A stretch of DNA of 64,000 bases from Mytilus trossulus (lineage: Eukaryota): NCBI RefSeq assembly GCF_036588685.1, contig NC_086380.1:10469347-10533346 (forward strand), written 5' to 3'. Below the pieces are notes generated by a model that saw only the letters and a list, made by a program, of their open reading frames with translations, was not told where the DNA came from and made no database searches. The number at the start of each line of letters is the position of its first letter. The first letter of the stretch is position 1. The position numbers and the translations under genes are program-made. Positions 4,951 to 50,083 of the stretch are shown in pieces.

Positions 4951-5339
4951 AAAGTTGTGGTGAAAAAAAAATTTGGAGGTAAACAAAATTTTGAGGGAAA
5001 AAAATTTGGAAAAAAAAACAAGTATGCAGAAAAATAAGTTGAGGAAATTTTAAGGAGAAAAAGTTTTTTTTTATGTGTTTCGGTTTGGACTAAAATAAGT
5101 ATATCAATATATATATATCATATAACACTATCAATAAACAAAAAGATAGCACTTATAAGATGCACACAAATCAGTGTCTAGATGCTAATATAGCTGATAA
5201 TCCAATACTTTATTTGTGAATTCATATACTGCATAGAAAGTTACTTTAAAAATGTTTGTCCTCAAAAACGTTTTGTCATTTGAAATTAATTTGACTTAAA
5301 CAATCAATAGCTTAAAATTCATTCATTATTAAGATAAAA

Positions 5340-6000
5340 GTCAGAGCATTTACCATGTGAAAGGCTTAACTTACTAGATGCCTTTTCTTAACATAAGGGT
5401 TACGTTAATCATTATTAAGATAACAGTGAGAGACTTACCATTTGAAAGGTTTAAACTACGTTGGGCCTTTTGTTAACATTAGGGTTAAGTTATTCATTAT
5501 TAAGATGACAGTCAGGGTGATTACCATGTGCAGGGTTTGAACTAATTGGGGCCTTTTGTTAACAATAGGATTAAGTAATTCATTATAAATATTACAGTCA
5601 GAGTGATTACCATGTGAAAGGTTTAAACGAATTGGGGCCATTTGTTGACATTAGGGTTAAGTTATTCATTATTAAGATAAAAGTCAGATTGATTACTATT
5701 TAGAAGGTTTTAACTAATTGGGGCCTTTTGCTAACATTATGGTTAAGTTATTCATTATAAAGATAACAGTCAGAGTGGTAACCATTAATTTGAAAGGTTT
5801 TAACTACTTGGGGCCTCTTGCTAACTCTATGGTTAAGTTATTAATCATTTAGATAACAGTCAGACCGATTACCATGTGAGAGAATTAAAATACTTGGGAC
5901 GTTTTTTAACATTAGGGTTAATCTATTAAGATAATTTTCAGAGTGATTACCATTTGAAAGGTTAAACTACTTGTGGCCTTTTGTTAACATTAGGGTTAAA
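5340..6000. repeat. Satellite of about 87 bp (cattattaagataacagtcagagtgattaccatgtgaaaggtttaaactaattggggccttttgttaacattagggttaagtta), roughly 8 units
   Basis: Tandem units are visible. A single related unit lies at 21170-21240, the homologous position in the second duplicated segment. Confidence 0.85.
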
Positions 6001-6589
6001 TAAAGGCAACAGTAGTATACCGCTGTTCAAAACTCATAAATCCATGGAAAAAAACAAAATCGGGGTAACAAACCAAAACCGAGCGAAACGCATTAAATAT
6101 AAGAGGAGAACAACGACACAACACCGAAACGCAACACACACAGAAACAGACCAATCATCAGACAAAACACCACGAGAATAACAAATGTAACATGAAAACC
6201 AAATACATGAATTTGGGATAGACAAGTACCGTGCCACGTCTTATCTCAATATCTCAAAAATAAGAGAAAACACAAACGACTCAACGTTAAAATGCAACAC
6301 AAAGAGAAACGAACAATATTATAACAATGACCATCTTCCTGACTTGGTACAGGACACTTTTAAAGGGGAATAAAGGTGGTGGGTTGAACCTGGTTTTAAG
6401 GCATGCCAAACCTCGCACTTTAATGGCAAAGTTAAATATAACATTGAAATGACAACATAATACTACAGGACTACAATACAAACAAATACGAGAACATATC
6501 AGACACAGAAAAACATGATAAATAGATAACAAAAAGCATCAGGTTTAAAATTCAATACGCCAAAAACGCACCTTGTCCACACAAGACTC

Positions 6590-7070
6590 ACCAGTGACGC
6601 CCAGATATAAAAGATCGAAAGTGAAAAAAGTACATAGTTGTACAGCACTGAAGATCAAAAGTTGAAAAGGTTTCGCAAAATACGGCATTGTTTTTATGCA
6701 TGGGATAAGAACATTCTTATTATATAGAACAATTCATGCTATTGCAAACAGTAAATTTTATCAAATGAATATGAAAGAGATATACACAAAGAAACTAAAG
6801 TATTAACTAATTACAGAAAACTAAACCTGAATACATAACGCCTAGATATAAAAGATCGAACGTGAAAAAGGTACAAAGTTGTACAACACTGAAGATCAAA
6901 AGTTGAAAAGGTTTTGACAAATACGGCATTGTTTTTATGCACGGGATAAGAACATCCTTATTATATAGAATACTTAATGCTATTGCAAACAGTAAATTTT
7001 AACAAATGAATATGAAAGAGATATACATAATTAAACTGAAATATTAACTAATTACAGAAACCTAAACCCA
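6590..7070. repeat. Tandem duplication of two units of about 245 bp
   Basis: 6596-6835 and 6843-7060 are near-identical (cagatataaaagatcgaa.gtgaaaaag.taca.agttgtaca.cactgaagatcaaaagttgaaaagg...). Confidence 0.85.
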
Positions 7071-7486
7071 AGTCACAAAATAGACACACATCCGAATCAG
7101 TCCAGGCGTCATTACCATTCTTGTTTTGTGATTTCAGTGAAGATTTATTTTAAGATATAAGTACATGGAAATTTTCTATAACTTTTATAACGCGTACAAA
7201 TCCTGTTGAACCATGTATGTCAGATCTTATAAAGTTCAAAAAACAACATTTGGGCGCACTGAATTCTATATCTAGCGTTAAAAGTAGGTATTTTAGTAAC
7301 ATTAAAATTAGTTTTATTACATGAAAATATATAGATGAAGTAGTATTAACAATGATAAAACTCTACATCAAAAACCAACTGATTAGAGCTTAGCATCTAT
7401 AAGTCACCAGCTTTTCACTAAGTTAATATTCAATACACATGTATATATAAATATATGCAATAATTTCCTATCATTTTGTCATTACT

Positions 7487-9433
7487 TCAACAGAGTTGAT
7501 GCAGTCTAAATGCAGCACTTGTTTTGTTATACGGATCCTCCTGTGCAGCAATATGAAAGTATTTTCTTGCTAAATCTATTTTACCTAGCATCTGAAAAGC
7601 TATTCCCTGTAAAAGAATATTATATGTGTTCACAAACCCACGCTGCTCCAATCCTTCTTGTAATCGATCGTATTCGCGTACTGTTTCTAATAACTTGTTC
7701 ATACAATTCCAACTTGATTTAAAGTCTTGGAGATGGTAACAACACAGAAAACGGAGGAAATGTGCAAATGGTATGGAACTTATATATGCCAATAGTTCAA
7801 AGGTATGAGGAGACTTTAACTCCATCGGGATGAATGAATCTGATAATGTATTGTCAAAACAGACATATGGAGATGGTATTTTCTTAACTAGTGACATTAG
7901 CTTCAGTGTCTTTGTCTGTGTTAGTGAAATCTTGGACAATATTGCTTCATCTTCACATTTTGACAAAGTGTAATTTATTATATCTATTGATGTTAAATAA
8001 TTGTTTTGACCATAGAAGAAAGAAGCCAATTTCAGCCACCCTGATACTGCATCTGAACCTACGCCTACCAACAACTTGCTCAGGTCATGTTTGTAGAGTT
8101 TGTAATGCTGTTTATTGTTTGGGTTATTTACATGTGGTGGTGCAAAAGGCATTAGTCGATATGTTATTATGATTGACAGTTGAAAGATACATCTGGATAA
8201 TTCACTTTTACAATGATGCAACAAGGTATACAAATTATAAAAGTATGGTAGATATTTTAGTGAAAATACTGGTCTGTTCTTAATCATTACTTTAATTAAT
8301 GTAGTTATTTCGCACACCGATCTTGTAGTTTCACATGGAAATCGTCTGTAATTCTGTAAAGTTTGAGAAGACGAGAAAATCTGAATTCCATTTTGGTATG
8401 ATTTCTTAAGGACGTTGATAAATGAGTTCCTTTGTTTATTGTTAAATCTTAAATAGAACAAGTTGTTATTAGGAATGAAATAATGTAACAACGTTGAATA
8501 TTCTACACAATATAATAACCTTTTTAAACAGGCCATAAAACAGGGAATAATATTGTCGGGTCTCCAGACTGATGTGTCATTTTCTTCTAACATCCAAAAC
8601 ATCAGGGTCTTCAAAAAGTATGAACACAATAAATCTTTTAATTCTTTCTTTCCATTTACTATTTCTTTCAATAATGTCTTTAACAAAGCATAGCATAGTA
8701 ACTGGGTATGACTGAAAGAATAAATCAGTATCTTCTCTGCAACAGAAAATGATATCCGCCACTGAAGATGTTCATTTATAGATCCCTTGTTGCCAATTGG
8801 AACAAATAAAATACCGCATGAAGTTATTTTGGAGATAAGTTCAGATGAAGGCCATATTGAACGTGATCTTGAGATCCATGGTTTGGCTTGAGATACCCAC
8901 TTATCACATTTTAGGCAGTACGCTAAATCCAACGATTCATCACAAATTGATAAACATGGACCGTGAATTTGTGGTTTGTACTCTGGGAATGAATCTTTGT
9001 TTTTTGTTAGTTGTGATTTATAAAGCTCACTTGAAAGTAGGGTTTTACCTCTGTGTTGTCGTAGGTTTTGTTTGATACAATTTAATTCTTTATCAACATT
9101 GGTATAACTTTGTAGTAGTGTAAAACACGGTGGTGTGTCCTCAGTATCCATTACAAACACTTTCCTCCTATCATGGACAACATCTTTATTTGATTCGTAT
9201 ATTACATATAAAGGATGAATTATCATTATATCAATATCACTACCTTTAAGATCTAGTCCTTCTCCCTTGCTTCCACTGGTTATGTTAGGAATAAGTTTGC
9301 TGGATCTTGTTGCGTCATCAGTTATAGATGTCAATCGTCTAGCTCTTACTATTGTCTCTGATCCAATTTTCTGACACAAGTATTCATAAAAATGTAAGCA
9401 TTCTGCTTTACTGTGAGACATATTCTTTAACAT
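7487..9433 (-). CDS. Mab-21 domain / cGAS-like nucleotidyltransferase (cGLR-like) with a C-terminal extension containing a TPR-like motif; single uninterrupted 648-aa ORF
   Basis: The translation contains ITSGSKGEGLDLKGSDIDIMI (the GS...[DE]h[DE]h nucleotidyltransferase motif) and VFVMDTEDTPPCFTLL. SLDLAYCL aligns with the cGAS third-Asp segment SVDITLAL. WRISFSVAEKILI matches cGAS WRLSFSHIEKEIL. LHYFIPNNNLFYLRFNNKQRN matches cGAS NYFIPEFNLFSSNLIDKRSK. The C-terminal 300 aa include a TPR-like stretch NTYNILLQGIAFQMLGKIDLARKYFHIAAQEDP. The paralogue starts at MSHSK, so the conserved start is probably Met5 at 9421. Confidence 0.8.
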   Translation of the reverse strand: MLKNMSHSKAECLHFYEYLCQKIGSETIVRARRLTSITDDATRSSKLIPNITSGSKGEGLDLKGSDIDIMIIHPLYVIYESNKDVVHDRRKVFVMDTEDTPPCFTLLQSYTNVDKELNCIKQNLRQHRGKTLLSSELYKSQLTKNKDSFPEYKPQIHGPCLSICDESLDLAYCLKCDKWVSQAKPWISRSRSIWPSSELISKITSCGILFVPIGNKGSINEHLQWRISFSVAEKILIYSFSHTQLLCYALLKTLLKEIVNGKKELKDLLCSYFLKTLMFWMLEENDTSVWRPDNIIPCFMACLKRLLYCVEYSTLLHYFIPNNNLFYLRFNNKQRNSFINVLKKSYQNGIQIFSSSQTLQNYRRFPCETTRSVCEITTLIKVMIKNRPVFSLKYLPYFYNLYTLLHHCKSELSRCIFQLSIIITYRLMPFAPPHVNNPNNKQHYKLYKHDLSKLLVGVGSDAVSGWLKLASFFYGQNNYLTSIDIINYTLSKCEDEAILSKISLTQTKTLKLMSLVKKIPSPYVCFDNTLSDSFIPMELKSPHTFELLAYISSIPFAHFLRFLCCYHLQDFKSSWNCMNKLLETVREYDRLQEGLEQRGFVNTYNILLQGIAFQMLGKIDLARKYFHIAAQEDPYNKTSAAFRLHQLC

Positions 9434-12400
9434 TGTGAGGATTTTGTTTTACAGTGAGACATAATCTTTTAATTTTCCGGGATTCTAAATAGTATAATGA
9501 TGTTGTATAACTATCCAGATATTTTTTCCGTTTTCTTTGTAAAGTTTTTCCTAATGGTATGGTATAATTGTTTTTATATTCTCTCTAGCTTGTAATGGTT
9601 TATAGATGTTCCTGTCAATTGGTCCAATATAAGCTCTACTTTCTTTTTTTTTTACTGCAGTGTAATGATTTCTGGTTCGGATACTGTATAATACTCTAGA
9701 CATTTGTTTATACGTGTAATGGTAAGTGTTGATTTTCTTAGGACGTTCCTTAAAAATAAACCAAATATTGTCTAAGATGGTTATGCCAAATCTTTAGCTG
9801 ACAATATTCTTCTTCGCACTTACCTGATGAAGTCTTAACTCTTTAAATATATTTTTTTCATATATTTCCGATGTAACTGGTACACCTTGTTTTTAACACC
9901 CTTCCCCTTTTTACCCCTTTTGAGGTTGTTTTTTTTTATTCAGCTCTTTTTGATTTAATCATCAACATATCAACTTGATCTGGTTGAATATTTGATTAAA
10001 GTGTTTACCGATATTAACTGAAATAACTTATAATTATAAATTATAACTAGCCTATATATATTTCGACAACTTTTCCTTGTTCCATATTTGATAATTTATT
10101 TTTTTAATATACTGTTTTTCTTAGAATTCTATTTTAAGAATTATTCGCAATGAGGAAGTTTTTGTAAGAAACGTAGCAGGTATAGGGGGAGGGTTGAGAT
10201 CTTACAATAATATTTAAATCCGCCACATTTTAGACTCTGTTCTTCGTAAGCCTTGTATGATTTTATAATTCTAGTTCACTTATATGTTTTTGAGTTCAGT
10301 ATGTCATCCATTTGTATTAAGAAGCCACCTAAGGGTACAAGAAGGTCTCACTGTGTTGAAAGACATAATTGTGGCCTTCGGCTGTTATCTACTGTTTGGT
10401 CGGGTTGTTTCCTCTTTGACCTTCCCCATTGGCATTCTAAATTTTGTTTCCCATACTTTGGCATTAAATATAAATGATATTTTCCCTACAGAAGCATGAA
10501 CTAGGAAATGTTTCCCTTAACTGAAACAAGTTGATAATATAGTTTCAGTTTCACATCTTACATTTATTTAATTATTAAAAATATTTTAAATAGGAAATAT
10601 TTATGTAGTATTATAAATTAATTTATACATTATTTATTTTATTACCCCCATTGGAAATAAGTTTGTGTTTGACTGCACGGGTAAAAGATATGCATAAAGT
10701 CACAACCATTGCAAACTATACATGCTATATATTAAGTTTGTATTTACATATGTTTCTGAATCGTGCAAATAGTATGTATACATTGGCATTAGATTAGAAT
10801 AAGGTTTAAAAGTTTACACTCCTTAACATCTTATGGATACTAGTGGTTCTACGTATGCATTGAATAATTGCTACTGGACATTCAACAAACAATCAAAAAT
10901 ACTAATGTAAGAATTGCAGATTCCTTGATAATATATGTACTTTCAAATTAAAAAAAAATCACTTACAGCTAGTATGCATGAAACAATACTTCATATAAAA
11001 ATTTGTTAAATTGATTAACCTTTTAGAAGGTTTCAAAAATCAAACAGTAACAATTTAGGCATATGAGATGAACACAAGATCCTAAGCTATCTAAAGCACT
11101 GAATAGGTTCCCCTTTCATAAAATTTTGAAATAACCTTTAGAGCGTTTAATACGCTCCCCTTTCTTGGACATGGAATATAATTTCTTTCTGTCCCAATTT
11201 ATTACGCAAGACTGTATGATGTTTCTAGCGGCCACTGATGCAAACTTTTGTTGAAGTTTGTGATTAGGTCAGTATAAAGGGAACCACTAATGGTAATTCA
11301 AATATATTTAAAATGCACTTATATAAACAATGGCACATCTGATTTCCATGTAGATTATTGGGTCCGGTCCTCTCATTCATGATCTATTGAGTTTGGAACT
11401 TTTTTCATAATTTACATGTTAAGTTGATGAAGTATCGGTCTTTTGACTAGGAAAATTTTGCATAGTTTATACGTAAAAGTTGGTAATAAGGTCTGTTTAA
11501 GGGGAACCACTTATGATAAGTAAATGATACCACTTCTTGGTATGCAGTTCTAATAGCATTGGCATATGTTATATTTCAGTAATTGTTGCAATTTGTTAAG
11601 ATCGGTAAAATTCATATAATTTGTACAATTTTATTGCAGAAATGTGTAACTGTATAGCCTTTCTTCTAGATTAAACCTGTTGATTATAAACATGAAAACT
11701 TATCTATGGAATAGCTGCATTATTTAAAAGAAGAAATGATGCTGCCTTTTGTAATTTTATTAGTTAGTAAGAACATTGCCCGAAGCACATTCTGCATGAA
11801 ACACTGAAGCATTTCACACTTGACATATATACACAGGCAACCCTTACACAACCCTATTAAATTTTAAAAGAGCCATTTATTCCTTATGATTACATCTTTA
11901 TGTTATAGCCATGTAATTACCAGTCAGGCCTTTCAATAGTTTTAACATGTGGGGTTATAGATGTTGCATTTTCCAGAGAATTCATTATTGTTCATAGGAT
12001 ACCATTTTTTTGTTGTCTTTGTAAATACAGGAGAAAACCTTTAATTTAAATGTTCAACAAATGACAAATTGTTAATAAAACATGTATGCAAAGTTTGGCA
12101 AAACCACGAAATTATATATATATATATATCTTTTTCTAAAAATGAGGGTACTCTTTATATGGCCTTCCAAATACCGTTTCGATCCCTAACATCACTGAAG
12201 AGACATTTATTGTCGAAATCCGGATCTGGTGTACTAAAAAAATATTGACACCGTATGTTTGTGGCAAAACACCGTGGCCACAAGTTAATTTTTTTTTAAG
12301 AAATAATTCATGGGGGCTTGAATATATCGTGATTTTACCACGGGTTGGCCCTTTATGACAAATATTTTATCCTGAGCGATAGCGAGATTCAAGCCCCCAT

Positions 12401-12479
12401 GAATTATTTCGATTCTAATAGGTCAAATACGGCAATTCTTTTGGATCGGAGCGCTCTAGGTGGAGGCATATATTTGCTG

Positions 12480-14530
12480 TTCCCAGAAATAAAGGTTACA
12501 CGCCATTATTCCGACAGCCCATTAGTCCGTCAGCCCATTGGTCCGACAACCCAATATTCCGACAACTCATTGCTCTGACAATCCATTGATCCGACAGCCC
12601 AATACTCCAACAACCCATAAGTCCGACACTTATCATGTCAAGTATCAGGGTCAAATAAAATTTGTCTGTCTGTATTATTACTTTTAAATATGTAATAACA
12701 TATAACTCCGTATATATAATGCTGAGTTCATTCGTAATTCGAATTCGATTCGCATAAAATAATTCGAATTAGTCCTAACGTCAATTCTAATTCGAATTAC
12801 AATGAGCGTCAAATTCGCTTAACTGTCCAAACGGCATTAACTTTAATTCGTATTAGCAAAAGCATATTTCTAATCCGAATTAGATAATTGGAATTGGCCA
12901 ATTCTAATCAATTCGAATTAGAAAAGAAGAGTGTGTGAACGCTTTTCGATTCGAATTAAATGTACGTGTGAACGAGGCATAAAATAAGGCCTATGTAGTT
13001 CGAATACTTTCTTTATACTTAATTCGAAATCTGTATATAGAATTGAACAGAAAAGAATATTTCATATTCCAAATTAAAGGGTCTATAAAGAGCATATAAA
13101 TCAAGAACAACGAGTGATAGTGCGAGCTACTGATGATTCCCCCGCTCACAAATTTCGTTGTAGAGTTATGAATCTGAAAAAGTATCGCACAGTATAGCTC
13201 ACATGTATAAACATTGAACCAAATTTCAGAAATCATTGTATTGTAGTTCCTGAGAACAATGTGACGAACATTTTTAACTTGGCTGTCATGTGAAAAGTGT
13301 TCGGTAAACAGGAAGTTGTTGACAATGAATCTGAAAACTCATCACACGATATAGCCGACTTCAACAAACCTTTCAGAAATCCTTGTATTTTAGTTCATAA
13401 AAAAAAATGCAACGAAAATATTCATGGAATTGACGGATGAACTGACTGACTGACTGACGGATGGACGGTTGGACGGACGGACAGACAGAGGCAAAACAGT
13501 TTTCGAAGCGGCGGTATAATGATTGGGTTAACATTAAGACTTTACAATACTAGTATAATAATATAATTATCTTTATAGCCCCATACGCCTCAGTGAGAAT
13601 CGGAGCCAAAATAAAATAAAAAAACTCAACTAACACATTGATATGAAATAACAGTGCTTATCAAGACATGCACTACATAATTCAAAAGAACTAGCAATAT
13701 AATCATCAGTTCCCCTCTTAATAGTAAAATTTTCTTGTGTTATCAATATTTAACTTTTTAAAGTTCTGACATGTGCTAGATATATGCTAAAAGAGTTCCT
13801 CCCTCAAATTATTATTAAGTGAGCATTCGATTGAAAAATGACGCTCATCCTCAACTTTATCCGTTGTACAATACGATTTTTTGAGTATATGACATTTTCA
13901 ATTCTTAACGTAATGGGTGAGCACCGATTTTTAATTAACATATGAAGTACCTTTCTTAAAATCAATGATATCTTCATATTTTTCTTCTTGATCACAATCT
14001 TTAAATGAAAAATAAGTGTCAAGTTTGCCATAAAAAAACATAATGTACTAAGTTTTTACAATTAGACAATGTATATACAGTCTCTGACCCCGCCGATATC
14101 ACTTTTCCTCATGACTATTTTTAAAGTAGAAGTTGCCGAAATGTTCTTGTCCGTCATATTTGTCGTAATACGACCGCAAAACTTTTTTTTAGGGATCGTA
14201 TAATGGTATGATGTCGCCGTCTGTGTCGCCTGCGTCAAGGGTAAGGACTGAGCAGTTAAAACAAGTATGTGTTTCAACTCCAATATATGAGACAAATATC
14301 CCGCATGGAAAGAATGATTGGAAAAAAAACGGACAACCCCAAATATAAAAGAGAAAAGATCTAGAGTTGGTCTTTTTAGAGAAAATTTTCCCAAAAACAC
14401 AAGACAGATGCATTGTCGGAATAATGGGCTGTCGGAGTAATGGGCTGTCGGAATAGTGTGCTGTCGGAGTAATGGGCTGTCGGAATAATGGGCTGTCGGA
14501 ATAATGGTTGTCGGACTAATGGGATGTCAC
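12480..14530. mobile_element. Nested element with long terminal inverted repeats built from tandem 17-18-bp units (cattggtccgacagccc-like)
   Basis: 12490-12620 is the reverse complement of 14400-14530 (ggactaatgggctgtcggaataatgg...). The interior holds a cluster of palindromic aattcgaatt motifs (12700-13030, at least 10 occurrences) and a tandem 130-bp duplication (13150-13420). It interrupts the foldback arm. Confidence 0.55.
13437..13500. repeat. Microsatellite (GACT/GACG/GACA)n
   Basis: gacggatgaactgactgactgactgacggatggacggttggacggacggacagacag. Confidence 0.8.
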
Positions 14531-16089
14531 CGAAATGAACACACTATTAAATTGGCGTAAAAGAACGGAGCAAACTGAATTAGTGACATGCTTAAACTAT
14601 TTAAAATAACGTATATAGATAGTTTTGAATTAATTTAAATGATAATTTACTTATATGTCTTAAATGTTTAAACAAATATGGCTTATAACACATTTTAGCA
14701 TTGTTTGTTTACGTTTCCATAATGTGATGATTTTCGGTAATACAAGCGTGTATTTTCCCATAAAATGCTCATATTCTAACGTCATCGTTTTATGACGTCG
14801 CAAACTCATTCATAAAAAAAGCATATGACGTGGGAGTACGATCGGAACAGCCCATGCAATATATTCAAATTTTACCACGGGTGTGTACTCAAAGCGTTTG
14901 AAGGACGTCATGTTAGAATTAGTATTACATTTATATTAAAATTCATTTTGTTACATGTTGTGATCAATTTTATTTGGCAATCGCCAATGGCAGGCAGCAG
15001 GGTTAAAGAACATCAGTTGTTCGACCTGTTAGTCAGATGCGTTTTGTTTAAATATACTTTTGCTCTTTTTTGGTCTTTTGGAAAATGTTTTTTGTACTGA
15101 TTTTAATACCCTTCTACAACCAAATTTGTTTTACATGCACACGTTAAAAAAAATCGGTTTTTATCCAACGCATTTATAGGTTTGAACGTTGTTTTCAATT
15201 TAGACTCGTTTATATATAAATACTTTACGGAAAAGATTTACTGTTCACCGTCAACAAATCCGAAATAAAGAAATTAGGATGATTAACGTAAGTGAACACC
15301 GGGATTTATGCGCTAGCAACACAGCACCCAAATACTTTGTTTTCCCATTTTTCCAATGTTACGACAAATTCACTGAAGAAATGAGAATTAATATGGAACT
15401 TATATGCTTATACAAAAGTACAAACCCAGCCTAAACAGATAAGATGTTACTTTTGTAAGGGTTACCGACTTTCTATCGTGATGTTACGTTACCGTTAGTT
15501 ACATTCATCCATGATTATCACAACGATGTGAAACCGGAATTAACCCTCTTGCTGCCGGAGGGACACATATGTCCATGGTTAAATTTATGCAAGCTTCTCA
15601 TCAATGCTGTATCTCTTCCCATAAAAATATCGAAGATAAAACAGTGTTATGTTTTTGTCCAATGGGTCCCAAATGTAACGGTCATTATGTCGTGACGTCA
15701 TATATCGAATGACGTCGTTGTTTGGCATGTTACGTCACAGACATTGAGCTGTCGTATTTTCCGGCATATGAAATGCAACCTTGAAAACGGTCGGCAGCAA
15801 GAGTTTGTCAATTAAAACAGAAAGAGACGTAGAAATATCTGAATTTTTGGTATTTTGGTATTTGCGCAAGTGTAAATTAATTTGTTCCCCGGACTAATGC
15901 TATACCGAACAGAAACTTAAAAATTTACGACACTACAGTGACAAAAGTCAATAATTTCCGTCAGTTCTACCACTGTCTACAGGTTTAAAGAAAGTAAGAC
16001 AACATTAAAAGGTGAAGGAAAATACAAACACTATGACATCTTGTGTTTTAGAAATTGAAATCTAAGTTAAGTTAAGTTATTTAATATTA

Positions 16090-16190
16090 TATAAATCAAC
16101 CTTAGTTGCACGGGATTCGAACCGTTGCCCGGTTTCATTGCATTGATATCAGCATGGTAAGCGAGAGCCCTATCCCCACTGCTACCGGGG
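16090..16190 (-). other. tRNA-like segment, probably a tRNA-derived SINE head
   Basis: The reverse complement contains GGTTCGAATCC (a canonical T-loop) preceded by GTAGCAGTGGGGATAGGGCTCTCGCTTACCATGCTGA. I could not fold a complete cloverleaf by eye. Confidence 0.2.
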
Positions 16191-16599
16191 TTAACATTAT
16201 CAATAAGCAAATCCAGCCAGTTAAACCTTTCTTTGAAAATGATTGAAATATATGAAATAATTCATTAAATTCTTTTTTCGTTTTTGTACCTTATCGCATG
16301 GACTATATATATATATATATATATAGTTAAATAACCACCAAACTTTTTTCAATTGTTGATAATTGATTTCTCACAAAAATAAATGAATCTACAGGATACA
16401 AAATAAAATCAGTGTATCGTGTTGAACTGATATGTGATATAATTGTACTGAAACAAAATAAACCATCTACGTGAATTGGTCCCTGGAAAAAAGTTTTCTC
16501 ATATGTGATGAAAGAAGTGTTTAATTACCTTGACTGGATATACATGCCTCGCACGGTCGGTATTGTCCTCTGTAATCATACCTCATCTACATGATTCTA

Positions 16600-20300: not shown

Positions 20301-21555
20301 ACAAATAGATATATATTAACTAGTACATTGTGAAAGAAGGATTTATGATATAAGGTCATTTTTTTGGCCTCTTTAAATCGAAAATCAAGAAGTATTAAAA
20401 CTCTACCAAAAATGATTCACTTCAACACTTGTTAAAATTCTAGTCTGTCAAACATCAGTATTAATATTTAAATTTTTGTCAAACACATTTATATTTGTGC
20501 TTCAACTTGAGTTGACAAAATTGCAAAGATAGCCTCATTTCGAAATCATTTCGATATAATATTTGTATTAACCATGCTTTACCCAAACATTTATTTTGCT
20601 ACTAGGTGTATTTGACAAAGATGTTAATGTTTGTCAATATGTTTCTTGGTAAGAATTTGGCTCATATTCATTTTCTCCAAAATTTGTGTGCAAAATGGTC
20701 CTTTTATGTTAATTTCAATATGTTACTGACACTACAGTAACATCACATCTGCCCTGTCTTCTCTAAAGACTCATGATTATACATGTTATAGGAGCATGTT
20801 CATTGATCAATATAATTAACAGAATTTTTCAAGGCATTTATAATTTCTATTTTTAGAATTTCAGCTCTTATCATACATGTCATACTTTCTCCTCTTTAAA
20901 TGTGATTTCATGTAAATAACCAGTATATGTTAAATGGTCAATTTACAAAACAGTCTATACATTTCATATCAACTTGTATCAATTTTTCTGACACAGATGC
21001 TATTTTTACAATTAATGTCTTTTCCGTACAAATGTCTCTACAGTACAAATGATGTTTGAGGCATATATATTTGATAATCTAATACTTAATTGTTGAATGC
21101 ATACCACATAGAAAATTATTGTAAAAAAGCTTGTCCTCAAAAAATTATTTAAAAATTAATTTCTTTTGGACAATCAATGGCTTAAGTAATTTATAATTAA
21201 GATTGCAGTCAGCGTGATTACCATGTAAGAGGTTAAGACTCATTAAAGCATATTGTCAACAACAGTGTTGTCTTCTGCGATTTCAAGGAAGAGTTAGATT
21301 TCATTTTAAAATTACACAAGGAATTTACTTAAACAAAAGCTTGTATGACCATTTCGATCAGCTCTTATAGCTGACGAAAAGTTATAAAGAAATGGGCTGC
21401 ATTCAATGATATTTCTATTGTAAACAATGACTGTGTGTTTGTCATAACTAATGACATTAGTCGATTTGATGCAGTCTGAATGCAGCACTTGTTAAATTAT
21501 ACTCGTCAATCTGTACACCAATACGAAAATACTTTCTTGCTAAATATCTCTCAAC

Positions 21556-23379
21556 TTACATCTGATAAGCTGTTCCCAATAAAACAAAATGATATGCCTT
21601 TATATCTATATATCTAGCTTCTCCTGATTGAATGTAATCATTAACTGTTTCTGAAATTCTGTCTATACAATAACGACTTGATTTAAAGTCCTGTAGATGG
21701 TAACAACACAGAAAACGGAGGAAATGTGCAAATGGTAAGGGACTTATAAATACCGCAGTACCAAAGTCATGAGGAGACTTTAGTTCCATTGGGATGACTG
21801 AAACAAATATTATCCTGTTAAATGACACATATGTTGCTGGTAGTAGTGATATCAGCTTCAGTGTCTTTGTCTGTTTCATTGTAATTTTTGACAAAGAAAC
21901 TTCATCTGTACATTTTGACAAAGTGTAATTGATTATAAACATTGATGTTACATAATGTTTGTGACAATAGAAAAATGAAGCCAATTTCAGCCACCCTGAT
22001 CTTGAATCTGACTTTACACCAACCAACAACTGGCTGAGGTCATGTTTGTAGAATTTATGTTGCTGTTTATTGTTTGGGTTATTGATTTGTGGTAGCGTAA
22101 AAGGTATTGTTTGATATTCACTTGCAAAAGACAGTTGAAAGATACATCTGGATAATTCAGTTTTACAATGATGCAGCAAAGTGTTCAATAAGCCAAAGAT
22201 GTTTGAAATAGTTAAGTGTTTGAACATTGTCATTGCTTTCATTGATGTAGTTATTTCCCACATTGATCTTGCAGTTTCACATGGAAATCTTCTGTAATCA
22301 TGTAAAGTCTGAGATGATGAGAAAGCCTGAATTCCTTTTTGATATGATTGTTCTAGGAAATTGATTAATGCGTCCCGTTGTTTATTGTTAAACCTTAAAT
22401 AGAACAAGTTGTTATCAGGAATGAAATAATGTAACAATGTTGAATAATTACTCTATACAGTATAGTAACCTTTGTAAACAGGCCATAAAACAGGGAATGA
22501 TATTATCTGGTCTCCAGACTGATGTTTCATTTTCTTCTGACATCCAAAACATAAGGGTCTTCAAAAAGTATGAACACAATAAATCTTTTAAGTCTTCCCT
22601 TCCATGTAATATTTCTTTCAATAATATCTTCAAAGCATAGCATAGAAGCTGGGTATGACTGAAAGAATATATCAGTATATTCTCTGCAACAGAAAAAGAT
22701 ATTCGCCGCTGAAGATTCTCGTGTATAGATCCCTTGTTGCCAATTGGAACAAATAGAGTACCGCATGCAGTTATTTTTGAAATAAGTTCCGGTGAAGGCC
22801 ATATTAAACGTGGTCTTGATATCCATGGTTGTGCCTGCCATACCCACTGATCACATTTAAGGCAGATTGCAAAATCAATATAGTATCATCAATGTCCGAT
22901 AAGCATGGACCATGAAAATGCGTATTCCCTTTTGTCTTTGGAGATATTTCTTGCATTTTGTTTAATTTATGTGACTTGTAAAGCTCACTTGAAAGTAGGG
23001 TTTTCCCTCTGTGTTGTTGTAGCTGTTGTTTGAAGTGATTGTCTAAGTAATTAACATTGGTATATAATTGTAGTTGTGTAAAACACGGTGGTGTGTCCTC
23101 AGTATCCATTACTATAGCTATCCTTCTATCCTGGACAACATCTGTATCTGATATATATACTACATATGCAGGATCAATACACATAATATCAATATCACTA
23201 CCTTCAAGATCCAGTCCTTCTGCCTTACTTCCACTGCTTATATGAGGAATACTATTGCTCGACATTGTAAAATCTCTACTTATAGATGTCAATCGTCTAG
23301 CTCTTACAACTTTCTCTGATCCAATTTTCTGACACAAATGTTCATAAAACTGTAAGGATTCTGTTTTACTGTGAGACAT
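21556..23379 (-). pseudogene. Frameshifted paralogue of the cGLR-like gene (about 70% amino-acid identity in the N-terminal half), truncated at the C-terminus
   Basis: The N-terminal ORF 22804..23379 (MSHSKTESLQFYEHLCQKIGSEKVVRARRLTS...SGSKAEGLDLEGSDIDIMCI...) aligns with the intact gene and then diverges. The remaining homology is split over ORFs 22527..22847 (off frame), 22448..22633 and 21556..22437. A 4-nt insertion near 22447 turns CVEYSTLLHYFIP into CIE*. The stop falls about 30 codons early. Confidence 0.8.
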
Positions 23380-26300
23380 AGTCTTTAACTCTGTAGGGAT
23401 TCTAAATACTAGTAGTACAATGATGTTGCAATACCATCCAGAAATTTTTTCTCTTTTTCTTTGTGATGGTTTTTGGTTGATAATCCAGCTTCATTGTCTA
23501 GATTGTCTATTATCCTTGTAATGGTTTCTGGGTGGTACTGTATAATTGTCTAGATATTATCTCTAGCCTTGTACTGGTTTCTAGATGTTCCTGTCAAATT
23601 GGCCTATTCGTCCAATTTTTTATCTATTCTTTTACTGTTTTCTATATGGTACTGTATAGTTGTCTAGTTTGTCTATTGTCCTTGTAATGGTTTCTGGATG
23701 GTACTGTATAATTGCCAAGATATTCTCACTATCTGTGTGTTACTTTATAGATTTTTCTTGTTCAATATTTGCTCTTCTTTTCTTTTCTTCTACTGGTTAA
23801 TCTAAATGTTATGTAGTATTGTCTAGTTTGTCTTTAACTTTTGACAGGGTTTCTGGTTTCTGATACTGTATGATAGTTTATATATTTGTTTTAATGATTA
23901 GTGTTGGTTTTCTTATGACGTTCCTTTAAAATAAACAAAAGATTATCTGTTTAACATATTGTCTGAGATGAAAGTTGTGTAGTCAAAGTTTCAGCTGTCA
24001 ATTTCCCGTTTAAGACTTATCTAGCGAAGAGGTATGTGTCTGTCCCAAGTCAGGAGCCTGTTATTCAGTGGTTGTCGTTTGTTTATGTGTCACATATTTT
24101 GTTTTTTATTATTTTGTTATATAAATAAGGCCGTTTGTTTTCTCGTTTGAATTGTTTTACATCGTCATTTCGGGGCCTTTTATAGCTGACTATGCGGTAT
24201 GGGCTATGCTCATTGTTGAAGGCCGTACGGTGACCTATAGTTGTTAATTTCTGTTTCATTTTTGTCTCTCGTGGAGAGTTGTCTCATTGGCAATCATATT
24301 ACATCTTCTTTTTATATTATATCTTTTGATATATATTTTTATATATTTCTGATGTAACTGGCACATCTTCTTTTAATTATAAGATACATATCTATATTTC
24401 AACAACTTTTCCTTGTTGTATGTTTGATAAATTTCAGAGGGGGATCCAGATATTCTAAATAGAGGGGGCCACTGACTGTATAAGAGGGGCCCGTTTCAGT
24501 CATTCTTCTCTGATTCCCTATTTAATCAACATGTTCGCCACAAAAGGGGGAACCCGGGTCCCCTGTCCTCTATAAATCTGCCTCTGAATTTAGTATTTAA
24601 TGTACTGCTTTTCATAAAATTATATTTTAGAATGATTGGCAATGAGGATGTTTTTATAAGAAACTTTAACTTAGCCCGCATTTTCCAAACTTTGTTAATA
24701 AACAACTTAATGATATTTCCTCTTACAGAAGCTTCAACTAGGAAATATTTCTCTTTACTGAAACAAGAGGATATGATAAGTTCAGTTTCACATCTTCAAT
24801 GTAATCATTTTAAATGTGAAATATTTATATCAAATGATATTGATCAGGAAATATTGTATGATAAATGGAATGATACATTATTTATTTTATTATCCAGGCT
24901 ATAAGAACCCCATTGAAAATTGTTTTTTTATAGCTTCCGGGGGTTATCCTTTTGTTGAGGCATTATATGCATTGAGTCCGTGGCAACCATTGCACACAAT
25001 ATACATTCAGGTTGTATTCAACTAGGTTTCTGAATCTTTAAATTGTATGATTGTATAATGTATACGTTAGTATTAGATTAGATTTTATTTAAAGGTTTAC
25101 ACACCTTACATCTTATGTTTAACCTTTGAATACTAGTGGTTTTGCATATGCATTAAATAATTGCTAATGGGTTTTCAACAATCAATTAAAAGTACTGATA
25201 TAAGAATAGCAGATTCCTTGATATTATATGCAATTTCAAATTAAAAATTTCACACGACAGCAATTATGAATAAAACTAATATTTAATATCAAAATTTGTT
25301 AGATTTAGCCTTTTCTAAGGTTTCCAAAATCAAAAAGTTAAAGTTTCGGTATATGGAAGGAACACGACACACTGAGCTGTTTGAAGGTTCCCCTTTCTTA
25401 AAACTTGAAAGAATTTTTACAGCATCCAACAGTCTACCCTTTCTGAAAACAAAGTGGAGAACTTTCTGGAGCATTGGATAGAATCCTTTTCTGTCACCAA
25501 GTAAAACTTGCCGTATGGTGTTTCCTGTGCCTATTACTTCAACATGTCGTTAAGGTTTGTAATTAGGCCAGTTCAAAGAGAAACAAAATGGTCATTCAAT
25601 ATGCATTTGTATAAGCATTGACACATCTGATTTCCATGTAGATTATTTGGTCATATGCCCTTATTTATGATCTATTGACTTTGAAACCTTTGCATAGTTT
25701 ACATGTAAAGTTGTAGATTTAGGTCAGTTAAAGGGGAACTACTTATAATAAGTCAATAATACTTGGTATGCAGTTTTAATGGCATTAGTAAATGTTATAT
25801 CGCAAACAAAAATGTTGGCCCAGTTCCTTCAGTCATGGTTCATAGACTTAAAAGTACTAATATTTTTCATAATTAACATGTTAATGTTTTACCGTTTTAA
25901 ATTTCACCATCTAAATTTTACTATCAAATTACAAACTGACAAGACATATCTCTGTGTCCACAGTTTAATTTAAAGCATGTATAAAATGACTGATCTTTAT
26001 TTTCTGCATCAGTTATAATAAGCAAAATAAACCAAGTATTTTGTGCAAAAAGGCTTAGCAATATAATTAAAAATTCTCCCGAAGCACTTGACGTGTTGGC
26101 CAAGTCTTGTTGTAATTTGTTAAGAATTGTAAAAATCAAATCGTTTAGGCAACTTTAATGCAGAAATGTGTAATTATAAAGCCTTTCTACTAGGTAACAG
26201 TGTTTGCAAATGTTGTATTGGGCTAGTGGTTATAAACATGATGCATGATCCATGGAATTTCTGCATTTTTTATTTAAAAAATAGAATGCTGCTTTTTGTA

Positions 26301-26577
26301 ATTATTGTAGTGTAAGAGCATTTCCAAAAGCACATTCGGTATGAAGAACAGACGACCTTCGTAATTTAGATTCATTGATTGGAAACCCTTTTACAACCAT
26401 GTTAGATTTCAAAAGAAGCATTTATTTCTTATTATTGGCTTTTCATGTACAAATTTGATATGTTATGTAATTATAACGAAAAAAACTATCAACATCATTT
26501 AGACTCTGGTGGAGAGACTTGTCTCATTGGCATTCAATCATTTCATACCATATACCACATGTATATCATTTGGTCTT

Positions 26578-26832
26578 ATGGGAGCTACTATTTGTGTTTT
26601 AGGGGGTGAGGCTAGGATGAAATTTTTAAAAAAGGTAGGACGAGCTCATTTTAAGTTTTTTTAAAAAAGGCAGGATGACATTGTATGATAAAAAAAGTCA
26701 GGATAAACTAAAAAAAGAACAGGATCGAATAGTGTAAAAAATAAAATTCAGAACAGAGATAACAATTAAAATTAAAAGCAGGACCACATTTTTCGTTCTA
26801 TTCCCCCTAATAAAATCAAATGGTAGCTCCCT
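26578..26832. mobile_element. MITE of about 255 bp with roughly 30-bp terminal inverted repeats, inserted into a minisatellite
   Basis: The 5' end gggagctactatttgtgttttagggggtgagg pairs with the 3' end ttctattccccctaataaaatcaaatggtagctccc (reverse complement cttagggagctaccatttgattttattagggggaataga). The interior holds 5-6 tandem roughly 25-bp subrepeats (aaaaaaggtaggacgagc / aaaaaaggcaggatgaca / ...). The flanks are minisatellite units (tcatttggtct... / taagtgaaaagttgtttcat). Confidence 0.65.
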
Positions 26833-26879
26833 AAGTGAAAAGTTGTTTCATAGGCAATAATATCACATACTACATTTAC

Positions 26880-28120
26880 ATCATTTGGTCTCTGGTGGCA
26901 ATTTATCTCAGTAGCAATTATACCACTTCATTTAGTGTCTGGTGGAAAGTTGATTGTCTCACTGGCAATCCAACAACATCTACATCATTTGGTCTCACTG
27001 GCAATCCAACAACATCTACATCATTTGGTCTCACTGGCAATCAAACAACAACTGGCAATCAAACAACATCTACATCATTTGGTCTCGCTGGCAATCCAAC
27101 AACATCTTCATCATTTGGTCTCACTGGCAATCCAACAACATCTACATCATTTGGTCTCACTTGCAATCCAACAACATCTACATCATTTGGTCTCACTGGC
27201 AATCAAACGACATCTACATTATCTGGTCTTGAGTGGAGAGTTGTCTCACTGGCAATCAAATGACATCTACATTATTTGGTCGTGAGTGGAGAGTTGTCTC
27301 ACTGCCAATCAAATGACATCTACATTATTTTGTCTTGAGTGGAGAGTTGTCTCACTGGCAATCAAATGACATCTACATTATTTGGTCGTGAGTGGAGAGT
27401 TGTCTCACTGGCAATCAAATGACATCTACATTATTTGGTCGTGAGTGGAGAGTTGTCTCACTGCCAATCAAATGACATCTACATTATTTTGTCTTGAGTG
27501 GAGAGTTGTCTCACTGGCAATCAAATGACATCTACATTATCTGGTCTTGAGTGGAGAATTGTCTCACTGGCAATCAAATGACATCTACATTATTTGGTCG
27601 TGAGTGGAGAGTTGTCTCACTGCCAATCAAATGACATCTACATTATTTTGTCTTGAGTGGAGAGTTGTTTAACTGGCAATCAAATGACACCTACATTATT
27701 TGGTCTTGAGTGGAGAGTTGTTTCACTGGCAATCAAACGACATCTACATTAGTTGGTGTTGAGTGGAGAGTTGTCTCACTGGCAATCAAACGACATCTAC
27801 ATTATCTGGTCTTGAGTGGAGAGTTGTCTCACTGCCAATCAAATGACATCTACATTATTTGGTCTTGAGTAGAAAGTTGTCTCACTGTCAATCAAATGAC
27901 ACCTACATTAGTTGGTGTTGAATGGAGAGTTGTCTCACTGGCAATTAAACAACATCTACATTATTTGGTCTTGAGGGGAGAGTTGTCTCACTGGCAATCA
28001 TACCACATCTTCATCATTTGGTCTCTGGTGTAGATTTGTTTCATTACCAATCATACCACATATATCTACATGATATTGTCTCTAGTGGAGAGTTGCCTCA
28101 TTGACAGTCACACCATATCA
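26880..28120. repeat. Minisatellite related to 16600-17300 (63-bp units gtcttgagtggagagttgtctcactggcaatcaaatgacatctacattatttg, and 42-bp variants)
   Basis: Tandem units are visible. The ORFs 26835..27285 are artefacts. Confidence 0.85.
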
Positions 28121-28699
28121 TCTTATTTTCATACACATAAATATTATGGCAACCCTAAATTTACTTGCTTTCCTTACTCCTAACATATTTTAACTGATAC
28201 TTTACTTACTTTCTAATTAAACAGCAATGGTTTACTGTTTTTGTCTTAGAACAGTAACTACTGTATCTTTTCAACACTCACTGAAAATGAATCTTATAAG
28301 ATAAAATCATTCTTTATGTAGGCAAACAAAATCAGCTTCCCAAGATAATGTTAGATTGATGAAAAGATAATTAAAAAAAAAACTTAAATTAAATTTAATT
28401 ACCTATTTCCTTCAAAATTTTCTTGTGTAACTTTCATTCATTATGATACTTTCATGTCACAAAGCACTGAATTATATAAACAACTAATATTTTTCTGCAT
28501 AGAAAGAGAATTATATTAAGTATATGCCACAAATGATTTATATGTATATTTGGACTCTGAAGAAAGTTTTGGTAACACTTTTGGTTTCAAGAGACTTAAT
28601 ATCAGAGCATATTAATAGTCTTAATTTGTTCACTCATTGTTTTTGTCGAGCCTTTGTCTTTTGTCGAAACAGCGAGACATAGTGATCCTACATTTCTTC

Positions 28700-37560: not shown

Positions 37561-38072
37561 AAATTTATGTAAATTTTTACCAAATATAGTTCTCTGTTAC
37601 TAATGGGCAAAGTTCATGATAGATATAATTGTAAGAAGCAAAATCGTTCAGTAAAGTAAGAACTTCAAACACATCACCATCACCAAAATACAATTTTGTC
37701 ATGAATCCATTTGTGTCCTTTGTTTAATATGCACATAGACCAAGGTGAGCGACACAGGCTCTTTAGAGCCTCTAGTTTTATAATGAACTAAGTATAAAAC
37801 ATAAGTAATGATCATTTCAATGGATGAAATGAAATAGCACTGACATAGTTTGTGAAGGATAAATTGTTTTTCTTCGGCTTCAGGTAAAATTTAATACTTA
37901 TGTATCCTTAGATTTCCTTTTTCTAAAAGCAACACAATGTTACATCAAAACCTTGTTTGAAATTTGATTTTTATTAACTCTCTGTATGAATATTTGAATT
38001 CAAACCATTCAACATTTAATGCTTACTTTTTATTGATAAATTTAACTGTATTGTGTTTCTCCAAAAACAATC

Positions 38073-49789: not shown

Positions 49790-50083
<294 letters not shown>

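Follow-up and report, generated by a model that had tools for sequence, protein, structure and literature searches.

Two neighbouring units of about 10 kb, A and B, lie head to tail on one strand in a 64-kb window of the Mytilus trossulus genome (the whole stretch of DNA that was analysed, 64,000 nucleotides). We consider it probable (roughly 0.85) that they stem from an old tandem duplication and that both are array members of one Mytilus subfamily of cGLR (cGAS-like receptor) genes. Each unit consists of a tail with or without a 53-bp minisatellite, a 5' flank of ~3 kb, an intronless coding sequence for a cGLR and a 3' flank of ~2.6 kb. The coordinates of the units and of the sequences that they contain are summarized in Table 1.

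Table 1. Features of units A and B and blocks of homology between them (positions in the window).
Feature	Position	Counterpart in B	Strand	Remarks
Unit A	5089–18809		-	13.7 kb, ~6 kb of it later insertion; ends from colinearity with the M. coruscus orthologous unit and also from homology to unit B
86-bp satellite	5321–5999			8 copies; A 3' flank; TRF
A-only repeat-element insertion	5995–7108			includes a 241-bp unit twice, at 6597–7068
cGLR-like gene A	7487–9433		-	single ORF, 648 aa, intronless coding sequence
SINE/MITE-like interspersed repeat	10173–10445			5' flank of A; lies precisely between two blocks of A/B homology
A-only 4.5-kb insertion block	12119–16632			foldback, nested element and remainder (14953–16632)
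A 53-bp minisatellite and tail	16574–18809		-	minisatellite 16633–17316 (TRF); two tails, ~17317–18069 and ~18085–18809
Unit B	18848–28660		-	9.8 kb; upper bound 28660 extrapolated
Pseudogene B	21463–23388		-	+2 and +4 frameshifts, premature TAA; start codon (MSHSK) intact
B 5' flank	23389–26448		-	colinear with A 9434–11903; B-only repeat pieces ~24035–24325 and 24434–24586; 52-bp repeat 23493–23721
B minisatellite and single tail	26856–28645		-	36/53-bp units, ~22 copies; TRF
A/B block	5166–5401	21045–21269	same	71%, E 1e-30; ~150 bp of unique flank and one 86/87-bp satellite unit
A/B block	7493–9723	21463–23691	same	77%, 2.27 kb, E 0
A/B block	9984–10097	24326–24433	same	BLASTN
A/B block	10093–10172	24587–24664	same	84–86%, K2P 0.16
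A/B block	10447–11453	24681–25738	same	68%, E 4e-138
A/B block	11583–11903	26107–26448	same	69%, E 7e-45
A/B block	16574–17749	26856–28519	same	53-bp minisatellite and tail, 70%, E 6e-170
A/B block	18038–18415	28203–28547	same	BLASTN
A/B block	18679–18784	28538–28645	same	BLASTN

At least eight blocks are colinear and on the same strand when segment A is compared with segment B by BLASTN, with E values down to 1e-170. With B reversed without complementing, and with identical settings, 0 HSPs were obtained, against 55 with the real sequence. All coordinate pairs given in the preliminary description of this DNA were recovered in the comparison, and its observation that homology extends far past the coding sequence, with the blocks in the same order, holds. 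The long blocks at 10447–11453, 11583–11903 and 17300–17749 have no further copy within the window. The two segments are adjacent and equally oriented, they remain colinear past the gene on both sides, and they meet at a head-to-tail junction, as befits a tandem segmental duplication. The duplication included both flanks of the gene, and the duplicate is therefore of the DNA-level, non-processed kind.

The ends of unit A are set by positions 4143–12701 of the M. coruscus locus L004, which match 18809–5089 of the window with 81–88% identity. At the 5' end of unit B, 28538–28645 matches both A and M. coruscus L004 4192–4271. Its 3' flank (21034–18848) is 77% identical to the corresponding flank of the A unit in M. 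coruscus (L004 13467–15290), and is homologous to those of the M. edulis units as well. The homology with M. coruscus ends at 18848, and the tail of A begins at 18809; at this junction, ~40 bp separate the 3' end of unit B from unit A with its 5' end. The start of the B segment, originally placed at ~21100, is thereby moved to ~18848, and the apparent spacer between these positions is the 3' flank of B itself. Unit A has no counterpart of this sequence (18848–21034), its distal 3' flank having been lost. Of the duplication of ~16 kb that had been proposed, the head-to-tail arrangement is real; the 16 kb correspond to the present spacing of the copies, while the unit measures ~10 kb and A is swollen by ~6 kb of insertions.

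The product of gene A is 100% identical to NCBI LOC134681645 from Mytilus trossulus. It comprises a Mab-21 nucleotidyltransferase (NTase) core (residues ~1–355) and a helical C-terminal extension (~360–648), and it matches the Pfam families Mab-21_C (62.9 bits) and Mab-21 (32.2 bits; gathering cut-off 24.1). Searched against PDB sequences, the family profile retrieved Sp-cGLR1 (8gjy, E 1e-18) and cGAS (E 6e-15). An AlphaFold2 model of the product (pLDDT 78, pTM 0.71) was compared with the PDB using Foldseek, and matched mouse cGAS (4k98, target TM 0.73), Cv-cGLR1 (8gjw, 0.71) and Sp-cGLR1 (8gjy, 0.66), each with a probability of 1.00; overall, the matches to cGAS and Cv-cGLR1 have a target TM of 0.70–0.73. 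Residues G54-S55, D66-I-D68 and D169 are invariant across the 32-member family alignment, and D169 is aligned to the D in the SVDLTL stretch of Sp-cGLR1. We take D169 to be the third catalytic Asp, by analogy to the SVDITLAL motif of cGAS. Judged from the sequence, the active-site motif of gene A appears complete, with the G[GS] loop, the [DE]h[DE] dyad and the third acidic residue. Homology that spans the NTase core as well as the C-terminal helix bundle, together with the predicted fold, identifies gene A as a predicted cGLR. Its product may synthesize a cyclic (di)nucleotide upon activation by a ligand, and this nucleotide would signal through STING. The family yielded 743 database matches at E<1e-5; among the 120 listed, nearly all are from Mytilus.

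In copy B, the +2 frameshift is located at 22877–22878 (codon 168), adjoining the proposed third catalytic Asp, the +4 frameshift at 22447–22450 (codon 311) and the premature TAA at 21556–21558 (codon 616). The A protein aligns to B in three frames (tblastn; 66%, 82% and 62% identity), and the longest ORF from the B ATG encodes 191 aa. The ORFs, the tblastn search and the alignment of A and B bear out that one copy is intact and that the other carries lesions. Six coding indels in B are in frame (a -10/+1 pair being counted as one net -9), and only those of +2 and +4 shift the frame; a 1-kb flank block contains 22 gap openings. The presence of lesions and the retention of both 5' and 3' flanks are marks of an unprocessed pseudogene. 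Since the parent coding sequence is intronless, the absence of introns from B is uninformative on retroposition. Relaxed constraint on the B branch, with ω nearing 1, was not found: branch ω is 0.48–0.59 for B and 0.47–0.56 for A, and pairs of intact copies give 0.35–0.59. The equality of the B branch with intact copies indicates that B was inactivated recently, and does not imply that B is functional. With three disabling lesions and a branch ω as in intact copies, the term 'decayed', previously applied to B, is an overstatement.

The synonymous divergence dS between A and B is 0.35 (NG86 and ML), and K2P at 4-fold sites is 0.23. For the flanks, K2P is 0.27–0.375 over the ~2.7 kb that can be aligned, with dense indels; identity is 77–81% in the coding sequence and ~70–75% in the flanks. 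The equal divergence of flanks and synonymous sites argues that a single event copied both, and the flanks are as old as the gene and have drifted since. The dS between A and the M. coruscus A gene is 0.13–0.15, which makes the A/B split ~2.5 times older than that speciation.

The repeats in the two units differ. The 86-bp satellite unit is single-copy in B (~21179–21269) and in the M. edulis units, and in the A unit of M. coruscus this place is occupied by L004 12303–12701 only; the array in A has expanded from a single-copy unit. Neither B nor the M. coruscus orthologue, in which L004 12308 joins 12303, has the insertion at 5995–7108. The inserted sequence is 85% identical to M. edulis L002 12215–13072, where its orientation to the gene is opposite, and more copies are present in L001 and L005. 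The interspersed repeat in the 5' flank of A has other copies at 1258–1570, 41788–42108, 46622–46729 and 53823–53905, and B has an empty site at 24664/24681. As the A unit of M. coruscus has this repeat and B lacks it, the insertion falls between the A/B split and the separation of the species. Within the 4.5-kb block, a foldback element (12274–12493 and 14533–14952) is interrupted by a nested element (12494–14532), the arms of which are inverted arrays of a 16-bp repeat. The block is missing from B (26448 joins ~26488) and from M. coruscus (L004 5822 joins 5871). The outer foldback element is uninterrupted in M. edulis L001 14019–14642, and another copy lies in the window at 59192–60551. TRF and BLASTN thus agree with the preliminary description on the satellite expansion and the foldback and nested insertions that A has and B lacks. 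Its suggestion that repeat insertions date later events is also sustained, as the 12119–16632 and 5500–7108 blocks are missing from both B and the M. coruscus orthologue of A.

The minisatellite and tail of A match 26856–28645 in B and L004 4143–5822 in M. coruscus, and the two tail copies of A are 68% identical to each other. At the syntenic M. galloprovincialis locus the tail is present (L005 455–997, 82%) and the array is absent. The module of tail and minisatellite is found at the 5' end of every unit, and the copy number of the minisatellite ranges from 0 to ~22 among units.

Paralogous units in M. edulis have the same layout of tail, 5' flank, gene and 3' flank. P0003 and P0006 of M. edulis lie on the same strand, 20.3 kb apart, and share this architecture, as does P0004, after which comes the 5' part of a further unit. 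Other array members in M. trossulus are LOC134727321 and LOC134727322, on the same chromosome. The dS of A or B to the M. edulis paralogues (0.31–0.39) is similar to that between A and B (0.36). The originally envisaged duplication private to A and B is not borne out, and both are old members of a multi-unit array. In neighbour-joining (NJ) trees, B grouped with the clade of P0003, P0005, P0006 and P0007 in 79% of bootstraps; A and B as a private sister pair, a grouping that we rejected, were joined in only 16% of 500 bootstraps. The NJ tree is close to a polytomy, with supports of 76–79%.

The annotations of M. edulis and M. galloprovincialis contain no orthologue of A or B with an identity of at least 90%, and the M. 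coruscus orthologue of A is disrupted; in contrast to A, the BTB gene that neighbours the units has an orthologue with 98% identity. The syntenic site of M. coruscus has a single unit, of the A type, and no B unit was found over the 4 kb upstream of it, which requires later loss of B in that species or assembly collapse. In M. galloprovincialis L005, a B-type unit is represented by its 5' end at the syntenic position, beside the BTB gene.

We regard it as very unlikely that the flanks resemble each other through independent insertions of the same TEs or satellite-carrying elements beside two related genes. The region is rich in repeats, single 53-bp minisatellite units occur elsewhere (24260–24311 and 1831–1878), TE families are common to the window and the M. 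edulis spacers, and both the doubled tail in A and the variable minisatellite would suit such a history. However, the blocks keep one order and orientation, and the long ones have no further copy in the window; across ~117 kb sampled from M. edulis, M. coruscus and M. galloprovincialis, every occurrence of the long blocks has the same placement with respect to a paralogous gene. Moreover, the divergence of the flank blocks matches the dS of the gene. An assembly artefact, with the second copy being a retained haplotig or a false expansion, is a natural concern in mussel genomes, which are highly heterozygous and hemizygous (PMC7653742), but is extremely improbable here. The identity between A and B is far under allelic similarity, their TE content differs, and independent assemblies contain an A-type unit (M. 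coruscus L004) and a B-type 5' end (M. galloprovincialis L005).

The flanks of the tandem duplicates might also have been kept by shared regulatory sequence, as the preliminary description suggested from their ancient conservation. This reading is unsupported, because flank K2P is no lower than 4-fold K2P or dS, and we consider it rather unlikely. It draws on two short islands with similarity above the flank average, one at 10093–10172 and the other a proximal block of A (9692–9785, ~270–350 bp upstream of the ATG) that can also be recognised in the units of M. edulis and M. coruscus; yet for islands of 78–95 bp the excess is ~2.4 SD and fails correction for the windows scanned (rough estimate). 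Somewhat less likely still is that B is not a pseudogene, its lesions being sequencing or assembly errors, or the copy in this assembly being a null allele with intact B alleles segregating. Three independent lesions, none of them within a homopolymer run, speak against it, as does the failure to find a protein at least 90% identical to B in any Mytilus proteome in the database. On the other side stand the branch ω, which is indistinguishable from the values for intact copies, the frameshifts of +2 and +4, which jointly restore the frame, the intact start codon, GS and DxD motifs, and the presence of one stop where neutral drift since the duplication would give roughly ten (rough estimate).

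We hypothesize that unequal crossing-over or replication slippage, involving sister or homologous chromatids, gave rise to the tandem duplication. Subsequent divergence involved lineage-specific TE insertions, expansion of the satellite and the minisatellite, and loss of the distal 3' flank of A. B was under purifying selection like the intact paralogues for most of its history, and then acquired two frameshifts and a stop. Birth and death, as proposed before, is a fair description of the locus. Birth-and-death evolution is known from the tandem MHC, immunoglobulin and olfactory receptor families (Nei and Rooney). Like members of those families, A and B are gene-plus-flank units that were duplicated and diverge independently, that are kept or become unprocessed pseudogenes, and whose losses differ by species; nothing differs in kind, and only the locus and the family are new.

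Some bivalves have more than 200 cGLRs per genome, and TPR-fused cGLR architectures occur (Li et al. 2023, PMC9980059). Gene A shares with these radiations the Mab-21 NTase core, the active-site pattern, the predicted cGAS-like fold and membership of a very large lineage-specific family, whereas no biochemically characterised member of this Mytilus subfamily is reported there, and genomic organisation (tandem units, pseudogenes) is not described (PMC9980059). The locus also resembles the dispensable genes of Mytilus (Gerdol et al. 2020, PMC7653742) in belonging to a young or expanded, short-ORF, intronless survival-function family, and in that the orthologue of A is unannotated or disrupted elsewhere. 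Mab-21 and cGAS genes are unmentioned in that work; here, the presence of orthologues was compared between species. The locus is an ordinary outcome of birth and death, in a family whose huge expansion in bivalves is already known, and involves no new mechanism or kind of element.

We speculate, although it is on balance doubtful, that alternative cGLR copies are retained in a lineage- or individual-specific manner: A is intact only in M. trossulus, intact B alleles may segregate, and the tail and minisatellite could be the recombination substrate that sustains turnover of the array. If this is true, mussels would differ in which receptor of the A/B pair is expressed, and the locus would present a concrete, datable case of polymorphism, by presence/absence or null alleles, among the cGLRs. 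The locus provides an example of growth and shrinkage of a bivalve cGLR repertoire in which boundaries and junction are defined, as are the relative dates and the sequence of TE insertions. Units of ~10 kb were copied in tandem, remained under moderate purifying selection (ω ~0.5), and were then lost singly in different species. The analysis is of use for correcting the annotation (unit size, pseudogene status and the 3' flank of B), and offers a case for studies of presence–absence variation in mussels.

We compared the A side of the locus with the B side by BLASTN and recovered all pairings of the preliminary description; order and strand agree throughout (see table). The similarity extends beyond the coding sequence on both sides of the gene. 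A reversed copy of B, used as a control, gave 0 HSPs versus 55 with the real B, and no third copy of the long flank blocks is present within the window.

Coordinates of genes, lesions, A/B homology blocks and A-only insertions (window positions unless a locus is named)
Feature	Position	Strand	Details
Gene A ORF	7487-9433	minus	648 aa
B lesion: +2 insertion	22877-22878		codon 168, beside proposed third catalytic Asp; nucleotide alignment
B lesion: +4 insertion	22447-22450		codon 311; nucleotide alignment
B lesion: premature TAA	21556-21558		codon 616; nucleotide alignment
First coding exon of BTB-C2H2 zinc-finger gene	44721-46097	plus	458-aa ORF, BTB/POZ domain
A/B block	5166-5401 with 21045-21269	same	BLASTN
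A/B block	7493-9723 with 21463-23691	same	77% over 2.27 kb, BLASTN
A/B block	9984-10097 with 24326-24433	same	BLASTN
A/B block	10093-10172 with 24587-24664	same	BLASTN
A/B block	10447-11453 with 24681-25738	same	E 4e-138, BLASTN
A/B block	11583-11903 with 26107-26448	same	BLASTN
A/B block	16574-17749 with 26856-28519	same	E 6e-170, BLASTN
A/B block	18038-18415 with 28203-28547	same	BLASTN
A/B block	18679-18784 with 28538-28645	same	BLASTN
86-bp satellite x8	5321-5999		A only as array
241-bp unit x2	6597-7068		A only
SINE/MITE-like repeat	10173-10445		A only vs B; four further copies in window
Foldback element	12274-12493 + 14533-14952		A only; interrupted by nested element
Nested element	12494-14532		inverted arms of 16-bp repeats; inside foldback element
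M. coruscus orthologue of gene A	L004 9992-11918, CACVKT020006198.1		stop at codon 226, -1 and -4 frameshifts

The limits of the duplicated unit are defined by comparison with M. coruscus, with the BTB gene as the synteny anchor between species (its M. galloprovincialis orthologue, of 735 aa, is 98% identical and its M. coruscus orthologue 87%). The annotated A-like model of M. coruscus (P0021) is taken to be on the same scaffold as the BTB orthologue, since the longest contig given for both is 5,965,434 bp. Unit A and the M. coruscus locus (L004) run colinearly at 81-88% identity, from 18809 to 5089 in the window. Downstream of its gene, in the 3' flank of the M. coruscus A unit, L004 13467-15290 is 77% identical to window 21034-18848, a stretch previously regarded as a spacer. 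On this homology, 21034-18848 is the distal 3' flank that the unit had ancestrally, kept by B and lost by A in M. trossulus. The 3'-flank homology stops at 18848, ~40 bp from the start of A's tail at 18809, which locates the head-to-tail junction and gives a unit of ~10 kb; unit B extends from 18848 to ~28660. The 16 kb proposed earlier is the present spacing, in which ~6 kb of insertions in A enlarge the ~10-kb unit.

Two features of unit A lie near these limits. The tail is present twice (17317-18069 and 18085-18809), with only 68% identity between the copies; it is single in B, in the M. coruscus A unit and in the M. edulis units, and the M. coruscus tail matches A's distal copy at 85%. A purine-rich 19-bp minisatellite (AATAAGGAAATAGAAACCG; ~71 copies at 2324-3692 and 24.5 at 4478-4941), with strong GC and AT skew, occupies the expected place of the unit A distal 3' flank.

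The satellite and the foldback and nested material described as specific to A are real. M. coruscus L004 lacks 12119-16632 and 5500-7108, so both were inserted in the M. trossulus lineage. It does have the 10173-10445 repeat, which inserted after the A/B split and before the species split; ARAGORN and Rfam (gathering thresholds) gave no match over the window, so that no tRNA could be linked with this SINE-like element. The outer, foldback element occurs without interruption in M. edulis (L001 14019-14642). A 1.35-kb near-perfect palindrome at 59203-60551 (96.5% self-complementary) is a further foldback element and belongs to one family with those in unit A and M. edulis.

In the coding sequence A and B differ by dN 0.18 and dS 0.35 (ω ~0.5). 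The flank blocks have K2P distances of 0.27-0.375, with many indels, and four-fold sites 0.23; the flanks have thus diverged as far as silent sites have, in line with the prediction for neutral decay after one duplication event. The likeness of the flanks had been read as conservation, possibly regulatory, a reading that the match to silent-site divergence does not support: the A/B flank blocks carry no signal of constraint by K2P relative to silent sites. Two short islands, 10093-10172 and 9692-9785, show slightly higher conservation than the rest of the flank, within window-to-window scatter by a rough estimate. The better-conserved middle of the gene (88% nucleotide identity) was considered as a trace of gene conversion and rejected, since only dN falls there; dS keeps the same level throughout the gene (0.32-0.38), evidence against conversion.

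Copy B aligns with the gene A protein over three frames (66% identity for residues 2-168, 82% for 168-311 and 62% for 312-647) and can encode only 191 aa from its own ATG. As the preliminary description held, one copy is intact and one disabled: A is open throughout, and B carries the two frameshifts and the stop codon listed in the table, its other indels being in frame in the nucleotide alignment with A. Loss of the first ATG was rejected as a lesion, since the usual start in the family is the second ATG (MSHSK), which the remaining members use and B keeps. A -10/+1 indel pair at B codons 388-400, in a variable, low-pLDDT loop, was likewise rejected as a disabling frameshift, since it nets -9 and the ORF stays open. 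No protein at least 90% identical to frame-corrected B is found in the protein database (best match 70%). Three-taxon estimates of ω are 0.47-0.56 for the A branch and 0.48-0.59 for the B branch; the latter is within the range of intact paralogue pairs (0.35-0.59), so B evolved for most of its history under the constraint that is usual in the family, and its disabling is recent.

The product of gene A is 100% identical to the NCBI entry 'uncharacterized protein LOC134681645 [Mytilus trossulus]', which is encoded on a chromosome record of 80.7 Mb. Two Pfam models match it above their gathering score of 24.1 bits (Mab-21_C 62.9 bits, Mab-21 32.2 bits), and among proteins of solved structure Sp-cGLR1 (8gjy) and cGAS are nearest to it in sequence. 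The AlphaFold2 model (pLDDT 78, pTM 0.71) gives target-normalised TM scores of 0.66-0.73 when superposed on the structures of cGAS from mouse and human and of cGLR1 from oyster and coral. Residues G54-S55, D66-x-D68 and D169 (gene A numbering) are invariant across the 32-member family alignment. D169 is matched to the Asp of the 'SVDLTL' stretch in Sp-cGLR1, and we take it to be the third catalytic Asp of the cGAS motif. Residues ~360-648 are modelled as an all-helical extension, and TPR Pfam models match the same C-terminal region in some relatives. TPR-fused cGLRs have been described before, as have extreme cGLR radiations in bivalves, with >200 per genome (PMC9980059). Given the Mab-21 matches, the similarity to the cGAS/cGLR fold, the active-site residues and the known TPR fusions, the label 'cGLR-like' is fair, and we infer an enzymatic function for the product.

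The ~45 bp around the start codon (9440-9480; …AAAGAnTATGTCTCACAGTAAAACAGAATCC…) are repeated in tandem in several units, with 2-3 degenerate copies immediately before the real start (equivalents in B and in the M. edulis and M. coruscus units), and a short upstream ATG in A derives from these copies. A 52-bp repeat (CCAGAAACCATTACAAGG…ATACAGTACCA) differs in copy number among all proximal 5' regions of the units. A 5' UTR exon end at ~9815 in A (CAG/GTAAGT donor) was rejected as a common feature, since the GT is present only in A and its M. coruscus orthologue.

The two copies had been presented as a simple pair. Gene A is 68.9% identical to frame-corrected B and 68-70% identical to the M. 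edulis paralogues P0003, P0004 and P0006 and the M. trossulus paralogues P0005 and P0007. A and B group together in 16% of neighbour-joining bootstraps, B joins the P0003/5/6/7 clade in 79%, and dS among A, B, P0003 and P0006 is in all cases 0.31-0.39. P0003 and P0006 lie on the same strand, 20.3 kb apart, and P0004 lies 0.3 Mb away. Their units are arranged like A and B: a tail of ~470 bp is followed by 5'-flank blocks and the gene, and then by a 3' flank that holds a single 87-bp satellite unit and runs on into sequence homologous to window 20572-19171; beyond P0004 follow a minisatellite and the 5' flank of another unit. On these comparisons A and B are array members and not a private pair.

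Independent insertion of transposable elements next to related genes cannot explain the flank similarity: the eight blocks are ordered and unique in the window, their divergence equals dS, and they occupy corresponding places in paralogous and orthologous units. The 19-30% divergence between the copies, and the independent support for each unit in the assemblies of other species, exclude that the second copy is a haplotig or another assembly artefact. It is possible that the lesions in B reflect sequencing error or a segregating null allele, in which case 'pseudogene' would become 'polymorphic' and the structure would be unchanged. The preliminary reading, tandem duplication with birth and death, was right in kind; it erred on the size of the unit, on A and B as a simple pair and on conservation as the cause of the flank similarity.

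The M. coruscus orthologue differs from gene A by dS 0.13-0.15 (ω 0.73-0.78), which makes the A/B split ~2.5 times older than the M. trossulus/M. coruscus speciation. It is either a pseudogene or the product of an error-prone assembly; the annotated P0021 (393 aa) omits the middle of the gene. The 4 kb lying upstream of the A unit in M. coruscus contain no B unit. There, 103 bp (L004 2129-2231) match, at 92% identity, a stretch of M. trossulus that lies upstream of B (window 32688-32586). This single short match is consistent with loss of B at the syntenic site, thin as it is as evidence. The identity of the piece is far above its surroundings, and it is probably an exon of an upstream gene annotated in M. 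coruscus, whose product has 471 aa and which would lie on the plus strand of the window. In M. galloprovincialis, L005 1-997 holds the 5' end of a B-type unit in the syntenic place beside BTB, without the large minisatellite; the locus stops inside B's 5' flank. Among the matches listed, M. edulis, M. galloprovincialis and M. californianus have no annotated orthologue of A that reaches 90% identity.

The window as a whole is eukaryotic DNA, rich in A+T (32% G+C) and laden with repeats. A 68-bp satellite (at least 21.8 copies, 92% identity) runs from 62523 to 63999 and past the window end. The adjoining 61760-62523 recurs inverted at 56275-57039 (89%), beside about two satellite units (56129-56275), and 21-bp arrays (56327-56552 and 62229-62474) flank both copies. 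A ~500-bp tandem repeat at 35584-37617 (~4 copies, 89-93% identity) recurs in M. coruscus (L004 16678-17908) and in M. galloprovincialis (L005 27197-27499). Other repeats are a perfect (TGTC)x73.5 microsatellite (49790-50083), a 24-bp minisatellite (51696-52255; x23.6, 95% identity) and 790-bp inverted repeats ~240 bp apart (38706-39496 and 39738-40513; 90.5% identity). A 259-aa ORF at 157-936 (plus strand) resembles the C-terminal part of a reverse-transcriptase-like transposable-element protein with an FLDD motif; Pfam gave no match to it at E<0.01, and a related piece lies at M. galloprovincialis L005 1380-2021.

We found no paper on the A/B locus in the literature on cGLR in Mytilus or on cGAS-like tandem duplication in mussel. 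The locus is an ordinary, well-resolved case of an established process, and it concerns a family whose radiation in bivalves has been described before. Mussels have expanded, dispensable survival-gene families, described in a paper from which the cGLR family of A and B is absent (PMC7653742); the history of the locus in the species compared fits this picture.
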